DNA of 64,000 bases from a phage, in assembly GCA_024674815.1 (NCBI GenBank), contig GCA_024674815.1_4104.1; one strand, given 5' to 3'. Shown here one piece after another: positions 13,709 through 63,287 of this stretch (position 1 is the first letter of the stretch; every line of letters starts with the position of its first letter). Under the pieces are notes generated by a model that did no database searches, was not told the DNA's origin, and saw nothing but the letters and a program-made list of their open reading frames with translations. The translations under genes were made by a program, and so were the position numbers.

Positions 13709-13823
13709 CGTTTTAATCTCTCTTAATGTGTAGCGGGAAGTGTTCCCGCTCTCGATGTAAAACATTATACGCTTTTATCAGTACGGTGCAAGTACTTTCT
13801 ACAAATACTTTTAAAATAGTTTT

Positions 13824-13919
13824 CTTTCTATATAGGAGTACTATTATTCAGTACTGAATCAATCCAGGGGAACTATCTTTCTATATAGGAGTACTATTAT
13901 TCAGTACTGAATCAATCCA
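13824..13919. repeat. 2 x 43-bp direct repeat
   Basis: unit TCTTTCTATATAGGAGTACTATTATTCAGTACTGAATCAATCCA twice, 53-bp period. Confidence 0.6.
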
Positions 13920-14071
13920 CCAAATCACTACTACACCCCATAAAACGGCCTCAGACGCATTCTAACGCATTAATACACATAAGCTATACATTTGCACCAT
14001 TCCAATCATTCCAGGGCTTTACAGGCCGTTTAAACGCGTTAAATTATTTTCAATTATTTTGTTTTTAGGTA

Positions 14072-14099
14072 TTGACTTGATCCTGAAAAAGCGTATAAT
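14072..14099 (+). promoter_or_regulatory. plus-strand sigma70-type promoter
   Basis: TTGACT-16-TATAAT. Confidence 0.5.
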
Positions 14100-14103
14100 T
14101 ACT

Positions 14104-14165
14104 ACATAGACGCGAGAAAGCGGAAACCCCAGAGGGTGCGGAATTACGCCCAAAATTCAAGATAT
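14104..14165 (+). ncRNA. candidate small RNA A
   Basis: own promoter; shares GAGAAAG..GGGUGC..UUACGCCCAAAAUUCA with 14318-14380. Confidence 0.3.
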
Positions 14166-14287
14166 AAAAAAAGGATACACTCCCGCACCCTAGCAGGTAA
14201 ACGCACTTTCTCAGTACTGAAATATAGTACCATAGTCCGGCCCAGGATAGCAAGCAAATTAATTAAAACTTTTTTGCTTCCAGGGTA

Positions 14288-14315
14288 TTGCTTTATTTTT
14301 TCAGTACTGTATAAT
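14288..14315 (+). promoter_or_regulatory. plus-strand promoter
   Basis: TTGCTT-16-TATAAT. Confidence 0.45.
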
Positions 14316-14317
14316 AG

Positions 14318-14380
14318 TTCCATCAAGTCGAGAAAGACTCAAGCCCACCGGGTGCATAGTTACGCCCAAAATTCAGTACT
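14318..14380 (+). ncRNA. candidate small RNA B (paralog of A)
   Basis: conserved sequence blocks with 14104-14165. Confidence 0.3.
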
Positions 14381-14534
14381 GAAAAATTTTTAAAAATATC
14401 CGGCCAGGTCGTTGACATTGCCCCCAGTTTATAAGATAATGATTCCAGATTCAGAAAAATCTAACTACAGATACTGCGGGGAAACTATCCCCACGCGGTA
14501 GGGGAACTATTGGAAAAACAAAATAAAATTTTGA

Positions 14535-14680
14535 TTTAGCCGTCTATACTTCCAGACGTGTAACCATCTAGCCGTTTAGCCGTCTAGCCATCCAGCCATC
14601 CAGAAATCTAGCCGTTTAGCCGTCTAGATGGATAGCCATCTTTACTTCCAGACTTCTGGAGGGCTAGACATATCTACGTC
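14535..14680. repeat. iteron-like short direct/inverted repeat array
   Basis: repeated TAGCCGTCT/AGCCATCC units, palindrome CCATCTAGATGG, CTTCCAGAC x2. Confidence 0.5.
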
Positions 14681-15708
14681 CAAAATCCATCCAGGGTAAC
14701 TACACCCAAAATCCGTCAGTACTATACCATAGATCTATCTTTTGAAAGGGAGTATTCAGTACTGCCATCATAGCCCTCACTATGTTACCCTAGGAGGATG
14801 AAGACTATCATGTAGTACTGAATACTGTTAGAGGGAATCCACCAGCTTGTGCTGGTGGCATAATGCTTTAGATTAAAATCAGTACTGACACCATTCTGTT
14901 AATATCAGTACTGTTATTACAATTTTCATATGAGGTTCAAAAAGATGTACCACCACAGGAGGAACTATCTTTTCTGTACTGTCTCACGACAGGAGGTAGA
15001 GTAAATGAATTGTTCGCAGCAACTCATCTCTCTATGTAGAACATTATACAGTACTGAATCATAATGTCAATAACTTTCTTTCACCATTCAGTACTGATAT
15101 TCTTGAGAACTACCCGTCTACAAACATCATTATATCCCACAAATCATAAACGTCCCAACGTAAATTTCAACTTTCGAAGATCCAACTTTTATTTCATAGG
15201 TACTCCAAAATTTTTAGGATCGAGATTTAGGATGGAGTACTAACCAACTTTTTGCTGGAGCCTCAAGGGGTAATTGAATTTTACCCCGAAGGGTAAAAGG
15301 GTAATTGTAATTAAGGTGAAAGTAATAATTCAGTACTAATCATTGCGTGATTACTTTTGATTACATTTGATGTAATTTGCAAAATGGAAAAGGAGCTTGG
15401 AAACTACAAAGTACGGCAGACTTCCTCTGCCTACTTAGTGGCATATCAGTACTGAATCATTCACACACATTTCCGTGCATTCTTGAGCAATCTTGTCTAT
15501 ACTAATCAGTACTGAATCATATATAATCATTCTGTGATTCTACGGTGCTCATATAAATGTTTATATATGATTACTTATGACTACCTATGATTACGGGGTT
15601 TAGCCTGGGGAGAATCCTAGTGATCGCATTTGTCCAGGCTGAATTTTAACAATTCGCCTGTACATAAAGGTTGTTCACTAGGAGCTTCCCCTGTCTCTAT
15701 GTGTTTAA

Positions 15709-40105: not shown

Positions 40106-40135
40106 CAAAAAGGGCTGACCGAAGTCAACCCTTTA
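40106..40135 (-). terminator. UUCG-loop terminator/promoter element
   Basis: conserved GGGCTGACCGAAGTCAACCC. Confidence 0.5.
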
Positions 40136-48601: not shown

Positions 48602-48985
48602 TTACTTCTTGAACTTATGTTTTTCACTTTCGATTGCATTCACGATTTCATCATGAATTTTACGAAGATTGTGAGTTTTCTTTAGAGATTCATGTAATGC
48701 ACGGAATGCAGAGTGTACAGTTGCTTTAAAGTGCTCTTTAGGAGTTACTTTAAGTTTCTCGATAATATCACGTACATAGATTGGGTGATCCTCAAACACA
48801 CGATTAAGCTCATGACCTAGTGATTCTAGGCTAAATGCTTTTTCACGGGATGGACGATCATGTGCAAGACTTTGGTCTGGTTTTAGAAGACCTAGTGAAT
48901 CTAGATACTTGTGCTTATGTGCATTGTCTAGACCAGAAATATCAACATCATGTGATGGATCTTTCTTATTCCATTTATCAACCAT
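48602..48985 (-). CDS. hypothetical protein with LDSLGLL motif (127 aa), late-expressed
   Basis: shares YxxSLGLL motif with 47079-48356; TATAAATA upstream. Confidence 0.55.
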   Translation of the reverse strand: MVDKWNKKDPSHDVDISGLDNAHKHKYLDSLGLLKPDQSLAHDRPSREKAFSLESLGHELNRVFEDHPIYVRDIIEKLKVTPKEHFKATVHSAFRALHESLKKTHNLRKIHDEIVNAIESEKHKFKK

Positions 48986-49029: not shown

Positions 49030-49100
49030 GTTCCGTTGTCATTTATATCGAATGACATAAAACATTATATCATAATAAGAATGGTTGTCCCAAAGTTAAA

Positions 49101-59448: not shown

Positions 59449-59654
59449 TGAGTTTGTCCTACAATAAGCTTTGTGTTAGTATTACTATTGTAACACCACA
59501 TTTGTTCTTTACTAACTGTAATCCAAATATCTTTGTTTACTTGTTCGTATGTACTATCACGTACTGCTATGCATTGATTCATGGAATTCATTGGGGTTAT
59601 TTGTACACCGGAATTAACAGAGAAAGCGACTACTAAAAAGATTACTGAATTCAT
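59445..59654 (-). CDS. secreted small protein (69 aa)
   Basis: signal-peptide-like MNSVIFLVVAFSVNSG. Confidence 0.45.
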   Translation of the reverse strand: MNSVIFLVVAFSVNSGVQITPMNSMNQCIAVRDSTYEQVNKDIWITVSKEQMWCYNSNTNTKLIVGQTQ

Positions 59655-59714
59655 TTGATATTCCTTAATGGTTAATCATCCATCTCTTCGAGATGTCTGT
59701 TCGCTTCTAATACT

Positions 59715-59745
59715 ACGTATTCTACGCGAATGATTAATAACTGTC
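59715..59745 (-). promoter_or_regulatory. sigma70-type promoter
   Basis: TTGACA-17-TAGAAT on minus strand. Confidence 0.4.
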
Positions 59746-60271
59746 AAGGACTTTTAATATTGACGGGATTTGAGGAAGGGATTTTTCTTCCCCCCACAAG
59801 GAGGGAAATTTGACGCTGATGGTATCAGAGCTATTGCATTGAAGATTACTCATAAAGAGTGCGAAAGCGGGTCATCCTGTTTCTCTCTACTTCAGTTTCA
59901 TATGACGGTCTACACTTTTAAACATAGTGTATCTTCATTAAGTATCTATGCAATCAAATACTTAATGTGAGTACTCAAATTTTGGACGCAACTTTCCTGT
60001 ACAAAATTCGATAACTCTCCCTTAGATAATTCGTAAGGTGTTATCCTTATATGTCTATCAAGGAACCACCAGCTATCCTAACGTGGTTCTTTATACAGCC
60101 GCATTGCCGTGAGGGGTTCAAACTATGCCCACATCTAACGGGTTTCTTTTGCTGTTCGCACTGTCGGACTGCTCAACTGCCCTCTACGTTTTCGAGTGGA
60201 TCAGGTACATGAATATCATGCCAACAGAATTGTACAAGATAATTATATCACAAACTTTTACTTCATCCCAT

Positions 60272-60297
60272 AAAAAAAGGTTGGCATAAGCCAACCC
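60272..60297 (-). terminator. intrinsic terminator after sigma-factor gene
   Basis: GGUUGGCuuauGCCAACC + U7 in minus transcript. Confidence 0.55.
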
Positions 60298-60304
60298 TTG
60301 TTCT

Positions 60305-61270
60305 TTAGAAATCTTCGTATTCGTACCCTTTTGCAAGTACTAACTTCTTAAGCTTTTGCATAGCTTCACTGTACTTTCGATGTATTGATGAACGGGATTT
60401 AACATATTTTCCATTATCATCAACAAAACCATTATCAGCAATCTCACGAAGCGTTTCAGGTTCATATTCACCTAGACCATGAACACGCTGGATAATCTCA
60501 CGTTCTTTAGTACTCAATTCGTTGGTCAGTTCATTGATAGCATAACGCAAAGGTGCACGGATACTATCAACATTGAGGTTAAAATCAGAAGCAGGTGAAT
60601 GAATAATGTCACCTAATGTACCATCTGTAACACCGTCTAATGGTGCATCCAGCGAAGTGTATTCGCTTTGAAATAACAAACAATTATTAACATGCTGAAT
60701 CTCAATCCCAGTACCCTCTGAGATTATTTCAGGAGTTGGGCGAACACCATGTTTACGCATATATTCCTGACAGAATCTTTTTACTTTGATCTTATGAACA
60801 CTCATATAACGTGGGAAGTGTACCATATAGTTAGCGTCAGAACTTTCGTTATAGACTGTCATGTAAATACTAGAAGAAGCATAGGTAATGAACTTAACAT
60901 TCTTATTAAGATCAAAGGTTTTTAGTGCTCTCATGAACCCCTCAACACCATATGAAATCTTATCTTCAAATGGGATATAACAAGTACATTTACTTGCTAC
61001 ATCAATAATCAGTCCATAATTGTAACGAACTAACAGTTCAGTGTTTTTCTTTACATTGATACCAGCTTGAATATCACGAATTAGATCTTCATTGGAAACA
61101 TTTGGTGGTCGCTTAAGTGTAATATTATATTTGAAACTGCTTTGTACTTTACCTTCATTATCATCTTTATCTTCAACGAAATCTAAGGCTTCTAGTGTGT
61201 TGACTTCTTCATTAGCAAAACATTCATCCAGAACTTCTTCGGCAATTGTATTTAAATCAAGCTTTTTCAC
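60305..61270 (-). CDS. sigma-70 family RNA polymerase sigma factor (321 aa)
   Basis: region 2 (FITYAS...VHFPRYM), 3 (GVRPTPEI), 4 (EREIIQRVHGL...ETLREIA); GTG start with AGGAGA SD. Confidence 0.65.
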   Translation of the reverse strand: MKKLDLNTIAEEVLDECFANEEVNTLEALDFVEDKDDNEGKVQSSFKYNITLKRPPNVSNEDLIRDIQAGINVKKNTELLVRYNYGLIIDVASKCTCYIPFEDKISYGVEGFMRALKTFDLNKNVKFITYASSSIYMTVYNESSDANYMVHFPRYMSVHKIKVKRFCQEYMRKHGVRPTPEIISEGTGIEIQHVNNCLLFQSEYTSLDAPLDGVTDGTLGDIIHSPASDFNLNVDSIRAPLRYAINELTNELSTKEREIIQRVHGLGEYEPETLREIADNGFVDDNGKYVKSRSSIHRKYSEAMQKLKKLVLAKGYEYEDF

Positions 61271-61291
61271 TTACATCTCCTAATGACGAAA

Positions 61292-61789
61292 TCAAAATCG
61301 ATATACATTAATATTATCATCTGTGAAGCAATCATGGTTGTGCACATCCATGAAAGTACTAAACACTTTATCATATAAAGTTGTATGTTCTTCATGAATA
61401 GCAGCATCTAGCATGTATTCTCCACCACTTCCCATAAAGAAAGTGTAGTCTTCATGTAGGTATTCAAGTTTTTTAATAAACTTTCCTTTAGTTAAAATCA
61501 TATGAATAACATAATCTTTAGAAAGAAGCACACAATGGCAACTTAACTTTCTGTCAGGTATAACTGGTACTTTATTAATTAACCAATCCAGTACTTTATC
61601 AATTTCACTTACTACCCCACTAGCACTGAATAAACGGTCATGTACATATAAAGTTTTTTGATTAACAACTCCATATTGATATTTTGGTCTTAGTGGGAAA
61701 AAACCAAATAAGTTTCGTGGTATAGTTGACGTAACTCTAGAATCGGTAATCAATAAATTTAATCGTTTATCAATATAAACAGTTGTCAT
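61292..61789 (-). CDS. hypothetical protein (165 aa)
   Basis: ATG ORF. Confidence 0.55.
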   Translation of the reverse strand: MTTVYIDKRLNLLITDSRVTSTIPRNLFGFFPLRPKYQYGVVNQKTLYVHDRLFSASGVVSEIDKVLDWLINKVPVIPDRKLSCHCVLLSKDYVIHMILTKGKFIKKLEYLHEDYTFFMGSGGEYMLDAAIHEEHTTLYDKVFSTFMDVHNHDCFTDDNINVYRF

Positions 61790-61790
61790 A

Positions 61791-62210
61791 TTAAACCTTA
61801 TCTAAGAATTTATCGTATATATAAAATTCTTTATCGGTGAATACATTAATTCTAGTATCGAATCTTTGCATCGTGTTCATATACAATGAACTTTTTAAAT
61901 AAAAATACAAAGCAACAAATTCTGATATATGCATATTCTTTTTATTGTTACATAAATTCTTTAGCATTTTGATGCTATCAAATTCTTCTTTATCAAATCT
62001 GTACTGGTAAAAATTATATCTATTGAACTGGCACTCATAGATACGAAGTGCCATTATATCAATACATGCTTGCGATTTACAGTACTTATTCAATACGTCA
62101 TAATCACCCGTACATAATGCTACAAAGATTTTATGTGCAAGTGTAGCTTTTCCTTCAATCGTATGATAACCAAAGAACTTAATGATTAAGTACTGAAGAA
62201 ATCTAAACAT
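61791..62210 (-). CDS. hypothetical protein (139 aa)
   Basis: ATG ORF. Confidence 0.55.
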   Translation of the reverse strand: MFRFLQYLIIKFFGYHTIEGKATLAHKIFVALCTGDYDVLNKYCKSQACIDIMALRIYECQFNRYNFYQYRFDKEEFDSIKMLKNLCNNKKNMHISEFVALYFYLKSSLYMNTMQRFDTRINVFTDKEFYIYDKFLDKV

Positions 62211-62215
62211 TTTAT

Positions 62216-62476
62216 TTAGAATTTCTCCGAAATTACAAGTGTATCATCATAATCATCAGCAATATCATGAAGAACTTTTAAGTTACTTTCACCAGAAACG
62301 CTTTTTACTTCGTTCAAAAGATAGTTTAGATCAACTTTAGTTACTTTTTCTGAATCAAACACACAGAAAGTTAATTCAGCGTTTGGACAGATCTTCTTCA
62401 GATTATCAGCAACCACTTGTTTGAAGTTGAAAGATGGGGAAGCAACTAGGTTAACTGCAACGAGAATAGATTTCAT
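62216..62476 (-). CDS. hypothetical protein (86 aa)
   Basis: ATG ORF. Confidence 0.5.
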   Translation of the reverse strand: MKSILVAVNLVASPSFNFKQVVADNLKKICPNAELTFCVFDSEKVTKVDLNYLLNEVKSVSGESNLKVLHDIADDYDDTLVISEKF

Positions 62477-62550
62477 AATGTTTTCCTTTCTAGCTGATAA
62501 TTAAATTAGGAGCACATTGTACTCCATATTATTTGTTATGTCAAATACTT

Positions 62551-62802: not shown

Positions 62803-62861
62803 AAGTTCCTTACTCTAATTTGTTTTTAACAAAATAATTATATATAACATACTAAATTATG

Positions 62862-63287
62862 TCAAGTATTTTTAGTACCTTCTTCTGCCATTTTTGTGAT
62901 ATACCAATTAAGTACTGATTTGTGTACCATAAAAAATGTGAATGCAAATATAGCAATAGCTGCTGATGTAACACTATTAGATAATGACCCAAGTTGGATG
63001 TTAGTACCTAAAATAACAATAAATGGATACAACACAATCAATCTACTGTAAGGTTCGTCTCCAGTATCACGGAGAAATCCAAGCCTTTCATGATCCGTAT
63101 CCATAGTGACAATTGGACAGAACATAAGTGCAGACATAAGAGCAATACCAATTTGTGCTACATTGGAAATTGTAAACCACAAAGGATTTAAACCATATGA
63201 AATATTATTTTCTGTACAGTAGTAACCAAACGAATTGAATGCACAAACTAAAAATACAAAAATACAAATCTTATTATAGCCTCTCAT
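62862..63287 (-). CDS. membrane protein (141 aa)
   Basis: multiple hydrophobic helices. Confidence 0.5.
   Translation of the reverse strand: MRGYNKICIFVFLVCAFNSFGYYCTENNISYGLNPLWFTISNVAQIGIALMSALMFCPIVTMDTDHERLGFLRDTGDEPYSRLIVLYPFIVILGTNIQLGSLSNSVTSAAIAIFAFTFFMVHKSVLNWYITKMAEEGTKNT

Follow-up and report, generated by a model that had tools for sequence, protein, structure and literature searches.

For the Rak2-like jumbo phages (121Q, PBECO4, RaK2, GAP32, CBB), in which some 600 genes have to be timed, no phage polymerase is annotated, and the locus described here raises the question of which promoters a sigma factor encoded by such a phage would serve. The window, by which we mean the whole stretch of 64,000 nucleotides (nt) of phage DNA that was analysed (contig GCA_024674815.1_4104.1 of GenBank assembly GCA_024674815.1), carries on its minus strand, at 60305..61270, an open reading frame (ORF) for a sigma-70-family protein of 321 amino acids (aa) that is orthologous to gp167 of phage 121Q. 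A preliminary description made from the sequence had seen in it a conventional sigma-70-family factor in a T4-like context, and had named the TATAAT-only promoters of an array of RCC1-like genes as its possible targets. The reading that we favour, with a probability of roughly 55%, is that this sigma is made early in infection and redirects the host RNA polymerase to a middle class of phage promoters within a three-step cascade.

A divergent sigma factor with domains 2, 3 and 4

Membership of the protein in the sigma-70 family, with domains 2, 3 and 4, is confirmed far beyond chance. The preliminary description had proposed a profile search for the three regions. Pfam Sigma70_r3 passes its cutoff (37.8 bits, cutoff 25.3, E=2e-9), whereas Sigma70_r2 (23.0 bits, cutoff 24) and Sigma70_r4 (23.8 bits, cutoff 24.1) end just below theirs, the latter covering only the first half of the helix-turn-helix (HTH). 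PHROG 351, 'RNA polymerase sigma factor', matches at E=1.9e-60 and was the only PHROG found for the ORF, and the NCBIfam model of the sigma-70 superfamily, TIGR02937, scores above its cutoff. Comparison with PDB sequences by phmmer brings up RpoD, SigA and RpoS chains at 1e-11 to 7e-17, with an alignment that spans regions 2-4. An AlphaFold model built with 29 homologues has a mean predicted local distance difference test score (pLDDT) of 74, and mostly 80-92 in three well-predicted helical domains (residues 60-147, 154-199 and 241-313); residues 1-51 are predicted to be disordered. Foldseek matches this model to sigmaS and sigmaA chains at E values of about 1e-10 to 1e-11. Profiles, PDB search and fold comparison agree with the three regions that had been recognised from the sequence.

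The proposed GTG start also stands. The N-terminus (MKKLDLN...) is kept from residue 1 in homologues as low as ~31% identity, and the start is therefore sound. A good Shine-Dalgarno sequence, AGGAG, is read directly at 61277..61281 on the minus strand, 6 nt before the GTG; the spacer between the two holds an ATG that is immediately stopped by TAA, forming a start-stop pair.

It is the word conventional that has to be given up. With residues numbered by alignment to E. coli sigma-70, domain 2 (aa 80-147; 60830..61033, minus strand) aligns to sigma-70 residues 373-450 and is modelled with a pLDDT of ~90 over most of its length. The equivalents of D403, G408, G411, F419, K426, F427, Y430, A431, N383 and L386 are kept; among these F419, K426, F427, Y430, N383 and L386 belong to the pockets that receive -11A and -7T once these bases have flipped out, and their conservation is compatible with a TATAAT-like -10. 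Several other residues are replaced, namely W433/W434 by S/S, Q437 by M, T440 by Y and, in region 3.0 of domain 3 (aa 154-226; 60593..60811, minus strand), H455 by Y and E458 by V. The W433/W434 pair is absent from all clade members examined, which have S, T or A there instead. In domain 4 (aa 241-313; 60332..60550, minus strand) the recognition helix has the sequence RSSIHRKY where sigma-70 has RERIRQIE, so that R584 is kept and R588/Q589 become H/R.

The turn of the HTH in region 4.2 carries an 8-aa insertion found in this clade (G-F-V-D-D-N-G-K...; 60398..60430, minus strand), which is predicted to form a beta-hairpin. In the model the hairpin lies between helices 274-280 and 293-313 with a pLDDT of ~90, and the pattern G-[FY]-x-D-x-x-G-K is kept across the clade. 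Because the insertion splits the HTH, Pfam recognises just half of region 4. No Pfam match to Sigma70_r1_1 or Sigma70_r1_2 was found in the ORF, and the T4 gp55 profile did not match it either. RpoD_Cterm of NCBIfam matches at 6e-25, yet far below its equivalog cutoff, and the ORF stays far below every equivalog or subfamily cutoff of the RpoD, RpoS, FliA and SigB/F/G models listed; the RpoD models reach 57-88 bits against cutoffs of 354-779, which places the protein outside group 1 by this measure. The loss of the WW pair, Q437 and T440, the HTH insertion and the missing match to regions 1.1 and 1.2 together show that the factor is not conventional, and the predicted protein is better described as a divergent three-domain sigma.

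A clade of jumbo phage sigma factors

The relatives of the protein were revealed by exhaustive phmmer and tblastn searches, whereas a word-indexed protein search gave close relatives only. In the phmmer search 15 cluster representatives lie below 1e-30, followed by a gap (4e-29 to 6e-20) and then by ordinary sigmas; judged by sequence similarity, the phage sigmas form a discrete clade of the Rak2-like jumbo phages. Our protein shares with this clade the full-length similarity, the lack of the WW pair, the HTH hairpin and the N-terminal KKL[DN]L motif. The clade-specific motifs are KKL[DN]LxxIxxEVLDECF at the N-terminus (also given as KKLNLxxIxxEVLDECF) and CTCxIPFxDK in region 2.1/2.2, and the acidic, disordered N-terminal segment is conserved as well.

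The window is 99% identical to the Asteriusvirus jumbo phages 121Q, PBECO4 and SHEFM2K. The ~4 kb around the sigma gene are 98-99.4% identical to Escherichia phages SHEFM2K, E9.1, SP27, 121Q, PBECO4, slurp01, phAPEC6 and Sharanji; the genomes of these 121Q-type relatives measure 347-373 kb, and 121Q is classified in Asteriusvirus. The T4-like context of the preliminary description is thus half right: the phage group has T4-like core genes and its own late sigma of the gp55 family (in 121Q gp591, PHROG 12791/234), but the phage is an Asteriusvirus jumbo phage and not of T4 type. No phage RNA polymerase is found among the 121Q annotations.

Within Asteriusvirus the sigma proteins are 99.1-99.7% identical to ours (99.7% for the annotated factors of SHEFM2K and JP4, 99.4% for PBECO4), and most records annotate the gene as an RNA polymerase sigma factor. 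Homologues with 31-44% identity occur in RaK2, K64-1, Munch/7t3, GAP32, CBB, Serratia BF, Yersinia fHe-Yen9-03/04 and XbC2. The protein evolves fast, with 59% identity between 121Q-type and WPEC5-type phages where the primases have 92% and the adjacent RNA described below has 96% (nucleotide); despite this, the recognition helix RSSxHRKY is retained between the two types. The gene is present in every related record examined, and in none of the related genomes examined is the ORF disrupted. A 2026 paper reports the sigma factor to be missing from Escherichia phage Ecwhy_1. We reject this, since the DNA is there at 99.7% identity (MH791411.1 1032-3229), where the annotation reads 'similar to RNA polymerase sigma factor'.

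The gene itself is already known, being annotated and discussed in several papers. Iyer et al. (2021) described phage sigmas, minimal and RpoD-like, as a mark of 'group 2' jumbo phages without RNA polymerase (PMC7824862). The CBB paper located CBB_513 in the early region and described three promoter motifs, among them a 'divergent RpoD-like' one to which no factor was given (PMC5259590), and the Sharanji paper merely supposes that the sigma acts with the host polymerase (PMC11895373). New here are the signature of the protein clade, the genome-wide middle promoter class of 121Q with its match to the recognition helix, and the adjacent RNA family.

Three promoter classes and the early position of the sigma gene

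Promoters were surveyed in the sequences upstream of ORFs over the whole 121Q genome, using a k-mer survey and a position matrix. The early class is host-type, TTGACA-17-(c)TGTATAAT. The late class consists of (A/T)TAAATA, often with a TATAAT-like hexamer after it; it precedes the genes for capsid, sheath, tube, baseplate and fibres and those of the portal region, at 32-56 nt from their ATG. The middle class reads aaaa..T-G-(G/A)-G-A-C-A-a, 11 nt, gTG(A/C)TATAAT, that is TGrGACA-N13-TGnTATAAT, with the upstream element at the usual -35 distance (16-17 bp). No fourth conserved promoter motif emerged from the k-mer survey.

With the middle-class matrix, 41 sites come up on the coding strand and a single one on the opposite strand; shuffled genomes yield 0-5. 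These sites precede ssb (two sites), primase, exonuclease, topoisomerase, the DNA polymerase region, ClpA and the late sigma gp591, while others front non-coding stretches, including all four copies of a structured RNA. One further site, at 121Q 73473 and beyond the window, stands directly before a tRNA-Ser/tRNA-Leu cluster, and the stable RNAs examined (this cluster and the large structured RNA) share the middle promoter class. The same promoter class has been reported for CBB and GAP32, where it was given no factor (PMC5259590); the motif in the CBB supplement, TGAAACG-N13-TGGTATAAT, is the equivalent of the middle class, and one of its sites lies before the CBB gp55-like gene. The distinct promoter class that had been expected to accompany this sigma therefore exists, in that the middle class differs from both the host-type early and the T4-type late promoters, although it is not the class of the RCC1 array. 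As the gp55-like sigma and TAAATA account for the structural genes, three sigmas are left for three promoter classes.

The sigma gene is the last of a four-gene operon on the minus strand. The operon is headed by a host-type early promoter, TTGACA-17-TACAAT (11/12 consensus positions), at 62516..62544 (minus strand), and a second, perfect one (TTGACA-17-TATAAT, 12/12) lies one gene further upstream at 62837..62865 (minus strand). Host-type early promoters in the window number 18 on the minus strand and 0 on the plus strand; in 121Q the split by strand is 44 to 0, with the promoters concentrated at 50-150 kb. Host-consensus promoters, operon position and strand pattern together place the sigma as an early gene, in agreement with what was inferred for CBB, and the early-operon position is conserved among the relatives.

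The upstream promoter element follows the recognition helix

If the phage sigma reads the middle promoters, its recognition helix would be expected to match their upstream element. The syntenic 41-kb replication regions of RaK2, 7t3 and CBB were compared, together with the promoters fronting 34 copies of the structured RNA. TGnTATAAT is invariant across genera, while the -35-like element varies by lineage. It is TG(G/A)GACA in 121Q, WPEC5, Munch/7t3 and two uncultivated contigs, TGAAAC(A/G/C) in CBB, GAP32, XbC2, Yen9-04, Serratia BF and four uncultivated contigs, and TGAAC(A/G) in RaK2. The recognition helices of 15 sigma sequences fall into three classes, R-[ST]-S-x-H-R, K-A-T-L-S-R and R-G-T-L-H-Y, which pair one to one with these three elements in that order.

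This match does not mirror overall relatedness: 121Q and Munch share helix class and -35 element though their sigmas are only 36% identical, whereas 121Q has its nearest relative in RaK2 (45%) and Munch in CBB (44%). R584, which we take from published genetics of sigma-70 to contact C-31, is kept wherever the 'ACA' of the element is kept. The hosts are mostly enterobacterial and the early promoters of CBB have plain TTGACA, which implies a phage-encoded reader, and apart from this sigma no phage protein with a region 4 was identified in the analysis. The match between helix and -35 element across genera supports, without proving, that the sigma reads the middle class.

In the cascade that we propose, the host sigma-70 holoenzyme would transcribe the sigma gene from its consensus early promoters, and the product would bind the core polymerase of the host. 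Through region 4.2 and the hairpin inserted there it would read the -35-like element and so direct the polymerase to T-G-(G/A)-G-A-C-A, 13 nt, TGnTATAAT promoters; the timing of expression is likewise part of the proposal. The targets would be genes of replication and of nucleotide metabolism, one or more tRNA clusters, the four RNA copies and the gene of the gp55-like late sigma, giving the order host sigma-70, this sigma, gp55-like late sigma. Such a scheme can be tested, as it gives exact promoter sequences and predicted pairs of helix residues and bases. If it is true, the sigma and its promoters would constitute an orthogonal expression pair in E. coli.

Alternative explanations

Several observations weigh against this cascade and are best considered beside its strongest competitor, in which host sigma-70 reads the middle promoters through their extended -10, while another phage protein (MotA-like, or a small HTH protein) reads the upstream element or the element simply tunes promoter strength; the phage sigma would then serve some other promoter set. 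The middle -10, TGnTATAAT, is the textbook extended -10 of the host, which host sigma-70 could use without a -35. It stays invariant although the phage sigmas vary in regions 2.4 and 3.0 (region 2.4 differs by genus, IYM versus IRQ), and the residues by which sigma-70 reads this part of the promoter are missing: Q437 and T440, which read -12, are replaced, and of the TG-reading pair H455/E458 the first has given way to Y or H and the second to V or some other residue that is not acidic. Nor are the equivalents of Q406, E407 and N409, which in sigma-70 contact the beta-prime coiled coil, conserved in the phage sigma. The covariation itself draws on three helix classes from about four lineages that are independent, and RaK2 contributes five sites only. 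An activator encoded by the phage, distinct from the sigma and binding DNA, could vary in parallel in just this way, and in CBB and XbC2 a gene for an HTH regulator does lie close upstream of that for the sigma. Our literature search found no experiment on the sigma protein and no transcriptomics for this phage group.

A division of labour of this kind is familiar from T4, whose middle promoters are served by host sigma-70 with a phage activator (AsiA/MotA sigma appropriation). In the present phages, however, the upstream element stands at 16-17 bp and not at the -30 of the MotA box, and it tracks the sigma recognition helix across lineages that are not sisters. A phage sigma that left the middle class to the host factor would need promoters of its own, and the k-mer survey gave no fourth motif. 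AsiA was not found in 121Q by tblastn or Pfam, with a query that was approximate (the best tblastn hit, E=0.055, is gp502, which has no Pfam AsiA domain) and with MotA not searched. We therefore regard transcription of the middle class by host sigma-70 as unlikely, though it is the alternative that fares best.

Considerably less probable is that the protein is a sigma mimic or competitor, which occupies the host core polymerase or a partner and shuts down host transcription without initiating. The loss of the W433/W434 pair and of several core-contact residues, the fast evolution of the protein and its conserved acidic, disordered N-terminus would all suit such a role. The parts that read DNA are nevertheless conserved in the clade (the -11A/-7T pockets, the helix classes and the HTH hairpin), and a match between helix and promoter is not expected of a pure decoy. 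The missing WW pair is not decisive either, as several group 3 sigmas lack it and still initiate.

The link to the RCC1-like array, put forward in the preliminary description, is very improbable. The array occupies 20597-34692 (plus strand) with 13 ORFs, most of ~370-420 aa, of which the three tested by Pfam are RCC1-like; most of them are separated by a near-identical unit made up of the hairpin GCCAGTAC..TACTGGC, a T run and then GTATTAAATATAGTATAATGAATAAGGAGG. The attraction of the idea lies in a perfect TATAAT without a TTGACA-like -35. These promoters, however, reach no more than -3.6 with the middle-class matrix, which gives true sites 19-36, and they have neither TGn nor the TGrGACA element. 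TAAATA stands ~32 nt before the ATG in most of the intergenic units, often as TAAATA-nnn-TATAAT; the same arrangement precedes the tail tube gene gp553, gp597 and gp155, and at ~32-41 nt from the ATG it is common to the array and to tail tube, tail fibre and other virion genes. Together with the low matrix scores this arrangement fits the late, gp55-type class better.

That the gene is a captured cellular sigma, now decaying or dispensable cargo, would accord with the suggestion of Iyer et al. that the RpoD-like sigmas of group 2 were secondarily acquired from cells (PMC7824862), but with an ORF intact in all related genomes examined, a discrete phage clade, conserved clade-specific motifs and a conserved early-operon position it can hardly be upheld.

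A structured RNA family behind middle-class promoters

The ~620 nt that follow the sigma terminator seem empty but hold a middle-class promoter and an RNA element. The promoter, TGGGATG-N13-TGATATAAT at 60236..60277 (minus strand, matrix score 27.0), lies right after the terminator and points towards a structured RNA of ~460 nt, whose core occupies 59756..60209 (minus strand). Four copies of the RNA are found in 121Q, at 90328, 192841-193314, 247509-248046 and 326679-327147, each with a middle-class promoter before it. The element is 96% identical in WPEC5-type phages and ~70% (nucleotide) in CBB, GAP32, Munch, Yen9-04 and XbC2.

Ten copies from six lineages were aligned over 591 columns. RNAalifold gives 78 pairs for this alignment, 39 of them with compensatory double changes. 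The partners can pair in 96.2% of cells, against 36-45% when they are slid by 1-3 columns, and none of 500 shuffles reaches the observed values. Covariation of this strength favours an RNA over a DNA element, for instance an origin of T4 type.

Searching IMG/VR with an exact pattern yielded 32 loci. Every one of them sits either on a contig of jumbo-phage size (345-380 kb) or on a fragment (33-174 kb), and a contig carries 1-4 matches. TGnTATAAT lies 27-75 nt upstream in 33 of the 34 nhmmer matches in these loci, and the exception is cut at the end of its locus. From 2 to 5 copies are detected per genome, and to date the family has been seen in Rak2-like jumbo phages alone. In several genera a copy follows the sigma gene, at a distance of 0.06 kb in 121Q, 0.3 kb in RaK2 (where it overlaps the annotated ORF245), 1.7 kb in Yen9-04, 3.3 kb in an uncultivated contig and 4.3 kb in CBB.

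Rfam and tRNA scans of the window, and an Rfam scan of 59500-60400 in E-value mode, returned nothing meaningful. The 451-nt ncRNA002 of PA5oct, which is supported by RNA sequencing, has no nhmmer similarity to the element, and a literature search found no paper that describes it. The ~460-nt RNA family is apparently undescribed, and it is probably more novel than the sigma itself. It is conceivable, if somewhat doubtful, that sigma and RNA belong to a single host-takeover module, in which the sigma would be the specificity factor of a phage-private promoter class with a co-evolving -35 and the same class would drive the RNA.

Neighbouring genes and other regulatory features of the window

Three ORFs of 86, 139 and 165 aa (61292..62476, minus strand; PHROGs 26969, 37211 and 24804) precede the sigma gene and are apparently co-transcribed with it. 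None of the three has a Pfam match, and their order before the sigma gene is identical in WPEC5. The 165-aa ORF directly upstream of the sigma gene (61292-61789, minus strand) has a weak HslV-peptidase-like PHROG match (9e-6); its counterpart in fEgEco12 is annotated HslV, and its position beside the sigma gene is kept in WPEC5.

Transcription of the operon would end at an intrinsic terminator with a 10-bp stem and a T run (60276..60299, minus strand), which begins 5 nt after the sigma stop codon. Another terminator hairpin, GG(G)TTGACTTCGGTCAGCC(C) with a T run after it, is repeated in the window at 40128, 45981, 47066, 48408, 51834 and 5964 (minus strand). Some of its copies are directly followed by TGCTATAAT or GTTATAAT; in these the TTGACT of the stem stands ~18 nt from the -10, which makes them compact terminator-promoter units. 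The motif GGTTGACTTCGG, which is enriched upstream of genes, was considered as a site of the sigma and rejected, as it is a terminator hairpin.

Two more middle-class promoters were found in the window. One, at 49058..49099 (minus strand, score 29.4), precedes the ORF 48602-48985 (121Q gp199). The other, at 15123..15164 (minus strand, score 26.2), lies within a repeat-rich, non-coding stretch of 1.9 kb (13766-15708), where an early-type promoter follows it after ~55 nt. Numerous CAGTACTG palindromes are found in this stretch as well, together with an 8-nt/40-nt tandem array (TAGCCGTC, 14535-14628), so that a regulatory role or a function as an origin is conceivable.

Comparison with known systems

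The closest counterparts are the annotated sigmas of Rak2-like or 'group 2' phages (121Q gp167, PBECO4, slurp01 rpoD, Sharanji WNN14470.1, RaK2 ORF244, GAP32 and CBB_513), which are the same gene with the same early-region position and domain content. The gene of the window is itself no different from these; what is added is the clade signature, the middle promoter class of 121Q and the helix match. Cellular sigmas of groups 2 and 3 (RpoS, SigB/F/G, FliA) likewise have three domains without region 1.1, and the best structural matches are sigmaS and sigmaA. Unlike them, the phage sigma has the 8-aa hairpin in the HTH turn and its own N-terminal and CTCxIPFxDK motifs.

The logic of the proposed cascade is that established for Bacillus phage SPO1, in which gp28 serves as the middle sigma and gp33/34 as the late factors on the host core polymerase: an early phage sigma, produced through the host factor, switches on the middle genes, that for the late factor among them. 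Middle promoters of SPO1 are unlike host promoters in both -35 and -10, whereas the middle -10 of 121Q-type phages equals the host consensus, and the late factor here is of T4 gp55 type. T4 likewise has early, middle and late classes, with middle promoters that combine a sigma-70-type, often extended, -10 with a replaced -35. The late promoters described here resemble the TATAAATA of T4, and both phages have a sigma of the gp55 family. They differ in that the upstream element of the middle promoters lies at about -35 instead of the -30 of the MotA box, that no AsiA was detected, and that the phages described here encode a full sigma, region 4 included.

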